A DNA stretch of 64,000 nt from IMG/VR virus record IMGVR_UViG_3300002835_000031; one strand, written 5' to 3'. The DNA is from an uncultured virus (IMG/VR IMGVR_UViG_3300002835_000031). Taxonomy: Duplodnaviria; Heunggongvirae; Uroviricota; Caudoviricetes. Numbering within the stretch: the stretch's first letter is position 1; every line of letters starts with the position of its first letter. The notes beneath the pieces are model-generated. The model ran no database searches. It worked only from the letters and a program-made list of their open reading frames with translations, and was not told the origin of the DNA. Positions 43,440 through 47,142 of this stretch are shown here, one piece after another. The position numbers and the translations under genes are program-made.

Positions 43440-43705
43440 AGGGGTAATTTACCACGCGGCCTCATATAGTTTTGCTCTTCTGCCTCATTTTGAATCTTAT
43501 CTTTTAGTGATTGATTAATTAGATTGGCAACGGCCGCAACATCAATATCAATTTCATTGCAGTATTGTATTACTGCATCCATATATCCTATACTTTCAGA
43601 TAAGACCTTTTCTTCAATATACAAAGAGAATTCATTTTGTGATCTGAATCTTTTGGTAATAATTAAACTGTCGGTCAATACTTCATTTAAATTAAGTTCT
43701 GTCAT
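43436..43705 (-). CDS. gp33: late transcription coactivator
   Basis: FSLYIE...YMDAVIQYC..IDID...LINQSLKDKIQNEA...KLPL. Confidence 0.9.
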   Translation of the reverse strand: MTELNLNEVLTDSLIITKRFRSQNEFSLYIEEKVLSESIGYMDAVIQYCNEIDIDVAAVANLINQSLKDKIQNEAEEQNYMRPRGKLPL

Positions 43706-44376
43706 TCGATCTCTGGAAATAAAATTTCATCCATAAAGGTTCTAAACACAGTTTGATCTATGCCAAGGGTAGTCATCATTGCTGGGGTGTGGGGATTCAT
43801 CTTTTGAAATTTACAATAGTTGTTGTATCTCTCTTTATATGACTCTCCGGTTTTTTCTACTTGTCCTACATTATAAAGGTAAACGTGCAAGCTTTCAATA
43901 GCTAGATCGGACAATTTGTCCAATTCTTCTTCTTCGGATATATTGCCCGCCGCAATCATTCCGGGACTAAAAATTTGAGTTGCCCACTCAGGCAATATTC
44001 TTGGTTTATTCCATTCTAATTTAGATGAACGATCAATAAACCAAGTATACAAATCACAATTTCCGTTTTTAGAAAAATCATGGAATGCACCTGTAATTTT
44101 GCTAGCTCCGCACACTACATCAAATCCAAAGATTGGAGTAGGATCATCAAACTCTGGAAAAATTGTCATGTGCATAACCCAGATCTTTTTTGCTTCGCGC
44201 GCATCAACAATTTCCACATGGGCTCTGCGATAATTCTTCGAAGTAAAAATATAATTTTCCCAAAGATATCCTTTTCCTTGTTCTGCGGTATATTTTAATT
44301 CATCATCTGTTGTTTGTTCCAATGTCTCAAGAATATTTTGAGACAACGGAATCATTTTATCCCATACTAAAGACAT
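43702..44376 (-). CDS. pcyX: ferredoxin-dependent bilin reductase, PcyX-like
   Basis: RRAHVEIVDARE, MHMTIFP, PIFGFDVV, KITGAFHDFS, LPEWATQIFS and QKMNPHT motifs; adjacent to heme oxygenase. Confidence 0.85.
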   Translation of the reverse strand: MSLVWDKMIPLSQNILETLEQTTDDELKYTAEQGKGYLWENYIFTSKNYRRAHVEIVDAREAKKIWVMHMTIFPEFDDPTPIFGFDVVCGASKITGAFHDFSKNGNCDLYTWFIDRSSKLEWNKPRILPEWATQIFSPGMIAAGNISEEEELDKLSDLAIESLHVYLYNVGQVEKTGESYKERYNNYCKFQKMNPHTPAMMTTLGIDQTVFRTFMDEILFPEIE

Positions 44377-44903
44377 TAGTTAAATTCCTTAACAATTTGT
44401 ATGTTATAATCAAATCCTACACAGGCTTCTTTGCCCATATCGTCTTTTAATTTAGCTCGGAACTTTTCTGTTAATTCTTCTTTATTTTCAAACTGAAACA
44501 TTTTGCCTGAACCAGGAACAAGCTTAGCAAAAATTTGGCCGCCATTTAAATCACCTAAGTATCTTACATACATATGTGCAATTAAATCATCATGCTTAGT
44601 AATGTCCATGATATACTGAATATACTTTAATGTAGATTCTTTAATCGTATATGTTTTATCTGGTACAGCTAATTCCTGAAAATCTTCAAAGATTGCTTTA
44701 GATCTATAAAGGCCAGGGATACCTTCATACGCACCTAATTTTGGACCTGCAATGTTTTCCATTGCATGATATACTAAGTATAGTTGATAGAGGTATTCCG
44801 CATACTTATTTTTATCAACTCTCTTCTGAAAGATTTCTTTAATAAATGATTGCGTTTCCGCTTCTTTATGTTTTTCGTGTGTTTGTTCTTTTAATGTAGA
44901 CAT
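44376..44903 (-). CDS. hemO: heme oxygenase
   Basis: LKEQTHEKHKEAE (proximal His) and AHMYVRYLGDLNGGQI signature; start taken at MSTLKE. Confidence 0.92.
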   Translation of the reverse strand: MSTLKEQTHEKHKEAETQSFIKEIFQKRVDKNKYAEYLYQLYLVYHAMENIAGPKLGAYEGIPGLYRSKAIFEDFQELAVPDKTYTIKESTLKYIQYIMDITKHDDLIAHMYVRYLGDLNGGQIFAKLVPGSGKMFQFENKEELTEKFRAKLKDDMGKEACVGFDYNIQIVKEFN

Positions 44904-44907
44904 AATT

Positions 44908-45219
44908 TTATTTAAATAATATAAGTGCAAGTAGAGTTGAGTGAATAATAAAACCTGCACCGATTGTTACAACGTGAAGAATATCTTTAAGTATTACTGC
45001 TCTAACAAACAGCATAGATAATCCCGCCCAAATAAACAAAATAAGATCAACCGGTGGCATCTTATCTGATAGTCCAGACATTACGGAAATCATTGTTGGC
45101 ACAGTTGCGGCATGAATAAGAACAATTCCAATCCATGAAATCGTTTCTGCAGTAGCAACCGTTAATGTTGTTTTGCAATAATTAATAACATCTTGTAGTG
45201 TGGGGTATTTAAAGTTCAT
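44908..45219 (-). CDS. small membrane protein
   Basis: 103 aa with about three hydrophobic segments. Confidence 0.75.
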   Translation of the reverse strand: MNFKYPTLQDVINYCKTTLTVATAETISWIGIVLIHAATVPTMISVMSGLSDKMPPVDLILFIWAGLSMLFVRAVILKDILHVVTIGAGFIIHSTLLALILFK

Positions 45220-45790: not shown

Positions 45791-46063
45791 TTACTTTTTA
45801 CTAATAGTCTTTATATTATCTTGAGGAATGTTAGAAACAAAGCCATTCAATACATGAGCCTTTGCAATAATATCAGTTTCTGAGGGGTAGGCTGGAAAGC
45901 CTGGGTGATCCGGAGGTGTTTGGCCAGCATGTTTAGCTGTCTCTACCTTAGTAGACCAATCGTTAGATATTACTTCACGTTTACCGTAGTAATCGTCACC
46001 AAGCATATCTTTGGCCATTTTTAAAAGTTCTAATCTAATTTCGAACGGTGTCATATTACTCAT
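45791..46063 (-). CDS. phage hypothetical protein
   Basis: MTPFEIRLELLKMAKDML...YPSETDIIAKA..LNGFVS; strong AAGGAG RBS. Confidence 0.8.
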   Translation of the reverse strand: MSNMTPFEIRLELLKMAKDMLGDDYYGKREVISNDWSTKVETAKHAGQTPPDHPGFPAYPSETDIIAKAHVLNGFVSNIPQDNIKTISKK

Positions 46064-46098
46064 TTTAATCTCCTTGTGTGTATGAGTGTTTGTAAAAT

Positions 46099-46444
46099 GG
46101 TTAGTTATTCTGTTACGAGGAAACTAACCGAAACCCTAGCTACCTTATTTAGGCGGCAATGCGAAACTGTGAGTCGTTTGCGTTTACTTTGTTTTAGTTT
46201 TAACATCTACTCTGATGTGCTGTCCACTCTGGTACTCTTTACCCTGTCGAATCTATTTCAGGCCCATCATAAAGACTTTTCCAACGATTGTGTGCTTCGA
46301 AATAACTAATCCAAACACACCCTTCGCATCCTTTACCGCAACAAGAATTTGGCTTTTGCGGTTCGGGCGGTAAATCTTTATGGTGGACCTGGCGGGATTC
46401 GCACCCGCGTCCAGAATCTGTTTCTCTTTGCTTCATACAGCAAT
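46099..46444 (-). ncRNA. ssrA: circularly permuted (two-piece) tmRNA gene
   Basis: Acceptor piece first (about 46444-46381: GGAC-GCGGG-TGCGAAT-CCCGC-CAGGTCC-A-CCA), then a 115-nt intervening segment, then the coding piece from 46265 (GGGCCTG..GATTCGAC). The 7-bp acceptor stem has the G3.U alanine determinant. Tag ANDSQFRIAA* at 46181-46149; terminal hairpin GGTTAGTT..AACTAACC. Confidence 0.93.
46239..46436 (-). CDS. small Cys-rich oxidoreductase-like-domain protein overlapping the tmRNA gene
   Basis: PPEPQKPNSCCGKGCEGCVWISYFEAHNRW resembles the Oxidored-like (PF09791/OXLD1) pattern; no SD, so translation is unproven. Confidence 0.5.
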   Translation of the reverse strand: MKQRETDSGRGCESRQVHHKDLPPEPQKPNSCCGKGCEGCVWISYFEAHNRWKSLYDGPEIDSTG

Positions 46445-46450
46445 AACTCT

Positions 46451-46479
46451 ATTATAACGCCTTTTGTTTAAGAAGTCAA
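46451..46479 (-). promoter_or_regulatory. sigma70 promoter of the tmRNA gene
   Basis: TTGACT-N17-TATAAT; predicted +1 about 46444. Confidence 0.85.
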
Positions 46480-47142
46480 AAGTTGTTTGTCCTTTTCGTA
46501 TAAATCTCTATACTCTAATAATTTGGTTACCCAATTATCTCGTTTTTCGACAAATACTTGCGGATCATCGTTTTCAACTGCCATAATAATAACTAATTTA
46601 CTTACAGGTACCCCTGTTCGTTCTTCATACATAACTGCATATGCAGCACATTGCATAAAGTAATTATGAATGTGATCTTTATCTTTTCGTCTACTAGACG
46701 TTTTATAATCTATAATTGCTAAGCGACCTTCATATTCGGCAACACAATCTACAGTCCCCGCCAATCTTAAATGATCGGAATATAATCTTTGTTCTTGAAC
46801 ATGAACATTGTTAATTTTGTGTAAATATGGAATAATACTTTCAAACAATTCTCTTTGAAATACTGGAATTGTATCTAGCACATTTACATTATTAAGATAA
46901 TTCTCACAATGTAAGTGCATTTTAGTGCCACGTCTTGCAGCTGCACTTGCAATTTTATTTGCTTGTTCTTCACCTACTCTTTTACGCCATTCCATCAGAC
47001 CTTGTTTACCATGTGCTGATAAAACAGTGGTTACCGAAGGATATTTTTTACCATTCGGTGTTGCGTAAAATCTTACTCCATCTTCTCGAGTAACTTGTTC
47101 CAGTTTCTCAAATTCTTTCACCTTAACATGATTATAAATCAT
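46468..47142 (-). CDS. PD-(D/E)XK exonuclease
   Basis: YPSVTTVL, RGTKMH, LAGTVDC, IIDYKTS and QCAAYA motifs. Confidence 0.9.
   Translation of the reverse strand: MIYNHVKVKEFEKLEQVTREDGVRFYATPNGKKYPSVTTVLSAHGKQGLMEWRKRVGEEQANKIASAAARRGTKMHLHCENYLNNVNVLDTIPVFQRELFESIIPYLHKINNVHVQEQRLYSDHLRLAGTVDCVAEYEGRLAIIDYKTSSRRKDKDHIHNYFMQCAAYAVMYEERTGVPVSKLVIIMAVENDDPQVFVEKRDNWVTKLLEYRDLYEKDKQLLTS

Follow-up and report, generated by a model that had tools for sequence, protein, structure and literature searches.

A 64,000-nucleotide (nt) stretch of DNA from an uncultured, T4-like lake phage (IMG/VR record IMGVR_UViG_3300002835_000031, Caudoviricetes), referred to here as the window, carries on its minus strand a circularly permuted gene for a two-piece transfer-messenger RNA (tmRNA) whose intervening segment very probably encodes a selected protein domain. 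In known two-piece tmRNAs this segment is removed on maturation. In the window it would be a working coding sequence for a small four-cysteine Oxidored-like domain (PF09791) that has neither a start nor a stop codon of its own, the domain being the middle part of a longer 65-codon frame. Judged from the sequence, one transcript is probably both a messenger and the precursor of a stable RNA.

The tmRNA gene was called by both ARAGORN and Rfam (46058-46493 overall). ARAGORN placed a permuted tmRNA at 46058-46473(-) with the tag ANDSQFRIAA*, which has the first Ala and the hydrophobic ...AA tail followed by a stop that the permuted class requires. The Rfam model tmRNA_permuted (RF04321) matched positions 46149-46442 at 108.3 bits (gathering threshold 47) and the model beta_tmRNA (RF01850), which also aligns the promoter region, matched positions 46093-46493 at 100.3 bits (gathering threshold 84). 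The gene order is acceptor piece (T-arm, 3' acceptor strand and CCA), intervening segment, and then the 5' acceptor strand with the tag-coding piece. The beta_tmRNA model expects about 23 nt between the CCA and the mature 5' end, whereas the window gene has about 110 nt there. An earlier note, made from the letters of the window alone, had placed the CCA end at 46381, the mature 5' end at 46265 and an ATG at 46436, and had described a 115-nt segment, a 65-residue peptide with an Oxidored-like motif and an 11-base-pair (bp) stem closing the segment. All of these coordinates hold, and the stem (46382-46372/46278-46268) was recovered by RNAalifold.

The open reading frame (ORF) takes codons 1-19 from the acceptor piece, codons 20-58 from the intervening segment and codons 59-65, with the stop, from the 5' end of the coding piece. 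The hidden Markov model search that the note had proposed bore out the motif: the 65-residue product matches PF09791 with an E value of 9.4e-11. Its score is 41.7 bits, where the curated cut-off is 24, and the match pairs residues 22-54 with profile positions 7-39 of 46. The 38-residue translation of the segment alone scores 41.8 bits. With the curated threshold passed and the frame kept in relatives, as described below, the match is by these measures far beyond chance. Cysteines C32, C33, C37 and C40 are invariant in a family alignment of 101 sequences, and G34, G36, V41 and W42 are conserved in at least 90% of them. An AlphaFold2 model built from the same 101 rows has a predicted local distance difference test (pLDDT) score of 85-92 for residues 21-50, with a loop holding the four cysteines followed by a helix at residues 41-57; it falls to 56-57 over residues 1-20, which the acceptor piece encodes, and to 47 over residues 61-65. 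The residues coded by tRNA-like (transfer RNA-like) sequence on both sides of the domain would then be passengers. A Foldseek comparison of the model with the PDB gave no match, and no significant PHROGs family was found for the 65-residue ORF.

Searches with the ORF found 51 viral loci in IMG/VR, and the whole frame is kept in 34 of them, as 25 unique ORF sequences forming about four clades. The segment is 115 or 109 nt long, the sole length difference among the 25 ORFs being a 6-nt in-frame indel, and of 52 sequences run through ARAGORN, 42 gave a permuted tmRNA. When seven small free-standing homologues served as queries in a second search, 60 loci came up, 29 of them not met before, among which 16 were further embedded copies. 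Pooling all loci gave 138 unique sequences covering the 5' part of the tmRNA gene plus spacer, 35 of which have the Oxidored motif in frame. The protein homologue search returned 8 matches only, six of them other tmRNA-embedded copies; the remaining two, P0007 and P0008, have an unrelated spacer and match through their tmRNA-derived flanks only. In the GenBank phage collection no cultured relative was found: blastn gave no more than two 65-nt matches, both to Xanthomonas phages and together over 15% of the query, and a tblastn search for the ORF was empty. No match was present in the nearest record, G001 (23 kb, 13% complete).

The ratio of nonsynonymous to synonymous substitution (dN/dS, Nei-Gojobori) in segment codons 21-58 was between 0.04 and 0.27 (13 pairs, with a proportion of synonymous differences, pS, of up to 0.64), and in the tRNA-like flanking codons it was between 0.2 and 3.0 where defined. 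Pooled over 10 inter-clade pairs, the reading frame gave a dN/dS of 0.165 with 0 stop-containing codon pairs, against 0.40 to 1.43 and 10 to 43 such pairs in the other five frames (two sense, three antisense). Because the in-frame ratio is low compared with both the flanks and the other five frames, the protein is under real selection, which is limited to the segment, and by the same comparison an ORF on the antisense strand does not account for the signal. Of the features for which the earlier note would have homologous loci compared, the Cys motif and the frame are kept in the 35 unique Oxidored-bearing tmRNAs, and the bias toward synonymous substitution is seen in the pairs just described.

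The RNA is conserved as well. From an alignment of 13 embedded tmRNA genes RNAalifold recovered the P2 helix (with compensatory changes), the T-arm, the 7-bp acceptor stem (pairs 46-52/172-178) and a closing stem of 10-11 bp; the T-arm, acceptor stem and closing stem covary among these genes. Compensatory changes were seen at four of the five T-arm pairs (29-33/41-45) and at two pairs of the closing stem, 57/167 (UA to AU) and 63/161 (CG to UA). Both closing-stem changes alter residues, His/Gln at codon 19 and, as read from the aligned sequences, Tyr/Phe at codon 57. Since these compensatory changes alter amino acids, the ends of the segment obey the RNA and its middle obeys the protein. No convincing covariation was detected by RNAalifold in the segment interior of the 13 genes. 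The tag frames are also conserved in relatives (ANDSKFALAA, ANDEKYALAA, ANESSYRLAA). On these substitution patterns, both the protein layer and the RNA layer are under selection.

The features of the locus are collected in Table 1. The -35 hexamer of the promoter overlaps the last codons of the upstream PD-(D/E)XK nuclease gene.

Table 1. Coordinates of the permuted tmRNA gene of the window, its promoter and the embedded frame
Feature	Position	Strand	Basis or remark
Permuted tmRNA gene, beta type (acceptor piece, intervening segment, coding piece)	46093..46493	-	RF01850, RF04321, ARAGORN
Sigma-70-type promoter TTGACT-17-TATAAT	46451..46479	-	promoter scan, 11/12 matches
Acceptor piece: P2 5' strand, T-arm 46392-46408, 3' acceptor strand 46385-46391, CCA 46381-46383	46381..46443	-	5' limit (46443) inferred from the promoter only
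65-codon ORF	46239..46436	-	ATG 46436; stop UAA 46241-46239, 26 nt inside coding piece
Closing stem, 5' strand, extends acceptor helix	46372..46382	-	RNAalifold columns 55-65 pair with 159-169
Intervening segment, 115 nt	46266..46380	-	between CCA end 46381 and mature 5' GGG 46265
Closing stem, 3' strand	46268..46278	-	RNAalifold
Tag reading frame ANDSQFRIAA + stop	46149..46181	-	ARAGORN

Concerning the way in which the domain could be made, we consider it rather likely that translation takes place from the unprocessed tmRNA transcript, beginning at AUG 46436, and that it is mutually exclusive with processing. The frame would most likely open at this AUG in the P2 region of the acceptor piece, pass through the T-arm, the 3' acceptor strand, the CCA and the segment, and stop at the UAA in the coding piece. 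As the frame spans both processing sites, the messenger would be either the primary transcript of the strong tmRNA promoter before it is processed or a longer RNA made by read-through. It would be destroyed by the cuts at the CCA end and at the 5' GGG, which in the maturation of two-piece tmRNAs are the work of ribonuclease P (RNase P). That translation occurs, that it starts at this codon and that it excludes processing is what we infer, and a regulatory coupling between translation and processing is possible but unsupported.

The choice of start codon follows from the frame itself. In the window a stop closes the frame just three codons before ATG 46436 (it precedes YCCM), and no in-frame ATG, GTG or TTG occurs in the segment before the first Cys in any clade, so that ATG 46436 is the only ordinary start in the window. 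An internal start within the segment (ATA in clade 2, other codons elsewhere) was considered and rejected, no such codon being common to the clades. An in-frame ATG from which the frame is open to the CCA is present in 34 of the 35 unique Oxidored-bearing tmRNAs and a stop in none of them, compared with 52 open from an ATG and 31 carrying a stop, mostly TAA at codon 3, among the 103 other unique tmRNAs; these counts ignore shared ancestry. Toggling between CAA and TAA at codon 3 after the P2 ATG is frequent in genes without the Oxidored insert (e.g. L043, L044, L129, L144 and L165) and absent in those with it.

Small parts of the window are contained in 17 RNA-library runs, and the contigs of four metatranscriptomes (X1, X2, X3 and X6) were aligned to it. 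Such contigs give no ends, strand or level and cannot exclude DNA carry-over, and the tmRNAs of relatives add to their depth. The two mature tmRNA pieces had contig depths of 80-450 in X1 and X6. The segment had a depth of 7.2 in X1, from a lake, where a single 143-nt contig (46246-46388, 4 differences) covers it completely; its depth was 0-0.5 in X2 and 0 in X3 and X6, where, with contigs only, absence is not evidence. In X2, from a river, a 208-nt contig with a depth of 3.8 joins the acceptor piece, a diverged segment of equal length and the coding piece. As a weak hint, these depths fit a precursor that is rare but exists.

Several observations weigh against translation from AUG 46436. This codon lies 14 nt past the -10 box, so that its leader, provided that the promoter has been called correctly, would be no longer than about 8 nt, and it has no Shine-Dalgarno (SD) sequence; the short leader is a real objection. 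Both points had been raised as a caveat in the earlier note and both stand, but the lack of an SD sequence weighs less than it had assumed, given that 20 of the 39 large ORFs of the window have no SD core (19 have one). In our reading of the upstream sequences, homologues with an ATG of their own also lack an SD sequence. The AUG is not specific to Oxidored-bearing genes, as the 52 other tmRNAs above attest, and RNA constraints alone could explain its presence. The L069 lineage (proteins P0004 and P0009) has ACG in place of the AUG; there the frame opens only at an ATG 22 codons higher, apparently upstream of the presumed promoter. A ribosome reading the frame would have to unwind the T-arm and acceptor helices. 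In the four libraries the segment is at least ten-fold below the mature pieces or absent, in contig data from which ends and DNA carry-over are unresolvable. Decayed embedded copies also exist: L033 and L034 have Tyr in place of a Cys, L037 and P0016 are internally deleted, and P0015 is frameshifted. Because such broken copies occur, the Oxidored-like gene is dispensable.

Some of these points would be accommodated if the domain were translated by another route, either on a longer transcript that reads through from the nuclease gene, with initiation at another codon or re-initiation past the nuclease stop 31 nt upstream, or else from a non-AUG start. The L069 lineage, with its domain intact, no AUG and a frame open to the distant ATG, is what such a route would leave, the leader of about 8 nt speaks for it, and where the gene lies upstream of the tmRNA (see below) it is clearly transcribed from further upstream, across the tmRNA promoter. 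We nevertheless regard this route as unlikely, though well worth keeping in view. In the window the stop three codons before the AUG leaves no longer frame to be read, no clade offers an in-frame ATG, GTG or TTG between the AUG and the first Cys, and codon-3 stops, a common feature of other tmRNAs, occur in none of the 35 unique tmRNAs that bear the Oxidored motif.

The Oxidored-like gene is not restricted to the intervening segment. An exhaustive phmmer search collected 137 proteins at E values of 0.001 or below, and in viral contigs the gene occurs in three positions: embedded, directly upstream of the tmRNA gene, and unlinked to it. The nearest non-embedded relatives are proteins of 44-62 residues that start with M-Y-P-x-P and are 60-76% identical to the segment-coded part. 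In the upstream position (10 loci) the gene has its own ATG and reads across the tmRNA promoter into the acceptor piece, which it enters in the same frame as in the window in L077, L082-L084, L092 and L093 and in another frame in L072 and L105. The upstream-type ORF ends just past the CCA (L082:2522-2692; L072:2513-2701; L105:966-1148), and in L105 the gene begins 13 nt past the 3' end of a tRNA gene. The unlinked position is found in the 354-kb record G005 (98% complete), where the gene lies 65 kb from the tmRNA. The locus that encodes the free-standing protein P0011 was sought by a metagenome scan and not found. The embedded forms do not group as a single clade in a tree built from the 39 columns of the domain alignment, a tree whose resolution is too weak to order the three arrangements. 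Locus L081 (2522-4280), and likewise L085, has an Oxidored ORF followed by a remnant of the acceptor piece and by a 152-residue ORF that resembles the spacer ORFs of L162 and L043, together with an ORF of 243 residues on the minus strand, whose N-terminal motif makes it look like a GIY-YIG homing endonuclease, and a complete tmRNA 1.3 kb downstream. Taken as sequence, this layout suggests a nuclease-driven rearrangement around the tmRNA gene.

These free copies bear on the alternative, put forward in the earlier note, that the segment is a captured gene fragment; it would then be a piece of a small phage gene that has lost its translation and looks coding by recent capture or by repeated copying of a working free copy. 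Highly similar genes with their own start and stop do lie unlinked or just upstream of the tmRNA, the weak tree does not unite the embedded forms, and some embedded copies are broken. Yet embedded copies that differ at a pS of about 0.5-0.6 keep a dN/dS of 0.06-0.26, which argues that selection acted after these copies had diverged. The complete genome G002 (346,856 bp with terminal repeats, 100% complete by CheckV) has a single PF09791 match, the embedded copy, and since it has no second copy the embedded one is not maintained there by copying from a free one. With the only indel a multiple of three in addition, the captured-fragment explanation becomes very unlikely. It is scarcely credible that the segment is conserved for its RNA structure or for an opposite-strand ORF, with a fortuitous Pfam match: the closing stem is indeed conserved with compensatory changes and plus-strand ORFs of 40-77 residues exist here, but outside that stem 10 of the 14 predicted pairs are invariant, 2 vary only by broken pairs, 1 shows a one-sided change and the only two-sided pair (78/99) is broken in 4 of the 13 sequences, while all three antisense frames have stops and dN/dS values within 0.40-1.43, the Pfam score is well above threshold and the four cysteines are invariant across 101 sequences.

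Translation from AUG 46436 of the unprocessed transcript could be taken a step further, to a tmRNA precursor that is truly bifunctional, with a built-in competition between translation and processing, and to a recurrent placement of the gene by the acceptor piece that is functional and not accidental. A ribosome starting at AUG 46436 would block maturation by melting the closing stem, the acceptor helix and the T-arm, and processing would in turn remove the start and the stop of the ORF. An RNase P cut during translation would create a non-stop end, and rescue by tmRNA would then tag the Oxidored-like protein for degradation. If this were true, the amount of the protein would report on, or tune, the trans-translation capacity of phage or host, and the upstream-overlapping and in-spacer placements alike would serve this function. 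We hold it to be a long shot.

To place the window gene among its relatives, viral stretches were scanned with an acceptor-piece pattern; at least 120 matched, and 80 loci were examined among the matches listed, to which the following counts refer. Both spacer ends could be placed in 70 of the 80 loci, and the spacers so defined comprise 65 unique sequences 13-342 nt in length. Leaving aside those with the Oxidored motif, 25 unique spacers have at least 90 nt; a forward ORF covers at least 70% of the spacer in 18 of them and a reverse-strand ORF does so in 3, and 10 of these long spacers beat 95% of dinucleotide shuffles. An SD core with a start codon within about 20 nt past the CCA was present in 16 of 29 long spacers (4 Oxidored ones included) and in none of 36 short ones. 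Unlike these SD-led spacers, the window segment offers neither an SD sequence nor a start codon (ATG, GTG or TTG) in frame. Many spacer products are hydrophobic peptides of 23-48 residues. A second, unrelated Cys-rich domain is also predicted in tmRNA spacers by profile score: spacer ORFs of 86-87 residues in L165 (736-993, +) and L127 (432-692, -) pass the threshold of PF03692 ("CxxCxxCC", putative zinc- or iron-chelating), the L127 and L165 products scoring 29.4 and 26.6 bits, respectively, against 23. Some SD-led ORFs, those of L120 and L152, also continue past the 5' cut site into tmRNA sequence, where they share the frame used by the tail of the window ORF. By these sequence patterns the spacer in this phage tmRNA family is a slot for small genes, and the window case reads as a variant whose gene lost, or never had, its own start and stop.

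The SD-led spacer ORFs start 9-24 nt past the CCA and fill the spacer, with the SD core lying within the 5' strand of the closing stem. Loci with spacer ORFs include L115, L118, L120, L127, L129, L139, L148, L152, L156, L158, L162, L165, L172, L175, L184 and L189, and also L039-L043, L072 and L252. The same pattern scan of genome contigs gave 106 matches, nearly all of them 3' ends of one-piece tmRNAs from unrelated phyla. Two of the 80 genome-contig loci examined out of these 106 are permuted-like, L237 and L252, which occur in metagenome-assembled genomes (MAGs) labelled Crocinitomicaceae and Haliscomenobacter and are probably phage contigs binned into Bacteroidota MAGs. Two further variations of the tmRNA were noted. 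In the embedded-type tmRNA of L032 (3020-3050) the T-arm is remodelled, and the usual T-loop sequence is missing from its loop; the 74-residue ORF is intact, and the gene was missed by ARAGORN and scored 124 bits with Rfam. Long tags of 27-28 residues, e.g. ANVNKTVTVSGKNIKFSARSAKEALAV, were predicted by ARAGORN in L011, L066, L082 and L084, compared with the usual 10-residue ANDxxxALAA type; the tag of L072 is similarly long by eye only, ARAGORN having found no gene there.

With respect to the possible role of the protein, the family profile matches one solved chain, PDB 7zm7 chain o, an "Oxidoreductase-like domain-containing protein" (E value 4.7e-14) belonging to complex I of Chaetomium thermophilum. 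According to the part of the literature on this complex available to us (PMC9699679), the complex has one additional accessory subunit, which sits at the NDUFV3 site, on the peripheral arm's top; chain o may be this extra subunit. By analogy, binding to a redox partner of the NADH-dehydrogenase type is a lead, and a role as a small accessory protein that binds a redox partner or a metal is plausible. The neighbourhood in the window is T4-like (gp32, gp59, PhoH, DNA ligase and a denV-type glycosylase). A heme oxygenase (PF01126) and a ferredoxin-dependent bilin reductase (PF05996) are encoded side by side at 43702-44960(-), about 1.3-2.5 kb from the tmRNA, and this pair sits in a phage whose tmRNA tag looks proteobacterial, not cyanobacterial.

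The segment matters beyond this phage. tmRNA genes are annotated as non-coding and the excised segment is treated as junk, and here that segment carries a domain under purifying selection. RNA and protein information overlap unusually tightly, with the frame crossing a T-arm and an acceptor stem that are under selection at the RNA level. Small phage genes of this kind are missed by annotation pipelines that mask RNA genes. The locus links the uncharacterised, widespread family PF09791 (OXLD1 family) to phage infection, and it offers a testable system in which to ask whether translation competes with stable-RNA processing on one transcript.

Among known systems, the Methylophilales phage Melnitz and the pelagimyophages (PMC9004378) share with the window a phage-borne permuted ssrA gene, an early-type promoter and a T4-like genome, and their genes likewise have the acceptor piece, the intervening segment and the coding piece in one transcript. 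What the available part of that paper does report is a glutamine riboswitch, located in the 3' domain, and the word "intervening" does not occur there; it is silent on coding by the segment, whereas the window segment encodes a Pfam domain. The 2025 update of the tmRNA database (PMC11915505) reports, in its available part, a tRNA-Ala gene and a repetitive element as inserts in intervening sequences, and the words "open reading" do not appear there. Those inserts and the window insert agree in that the intervening sequence tolerates foreign passengers; the window insert differs in being a selected ORF without its own start or stop. In the accessible portion of PMC4131195 phage tmRNAs are listed only. 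Our literature search, outside of which fell supplements such as Table S1 of PMC9004378, found no paper on protein-coding intervening sequences of tmRNA.

At the protein level, chain o of PDB 7zm7 has the same P-x-P...CC-x-x-GC-x-x-CVW...Y...W motif, but it is a 380-residue component of a mitochondrial complex whereas the phage protein has 65 residues with tRNA-derived tails. The dual-function RNAs SgrS/SgrT and RNAIII/delta-haemolysin also join a coding and a non-coding job in one transcript. There, however, a stable molecule has one part for the ORF and another for the functional RNA element, whereas the window ORF overlaps the tRNA-like domain and would be destroyed by maturation. The closest published analogue that we found is the intervening sequence of 23S ribosomal RNA with the S23p ORF in Coxiella and Leptospira, for which the results, in the part of the paper at hand, point to the protein not being made (PMC4990558). 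In both cases an ORF lies within a stem-closed segment that is excised from a stable-RNA precursor. The S23p ORF, as described there, is wholly inside its segment, whereas the window frame crosses both processing sites and shows clear purifying selection. The new feature of the window gene is this frame, which runs across both processing sites as well as the T-arm and the acceptor strand.

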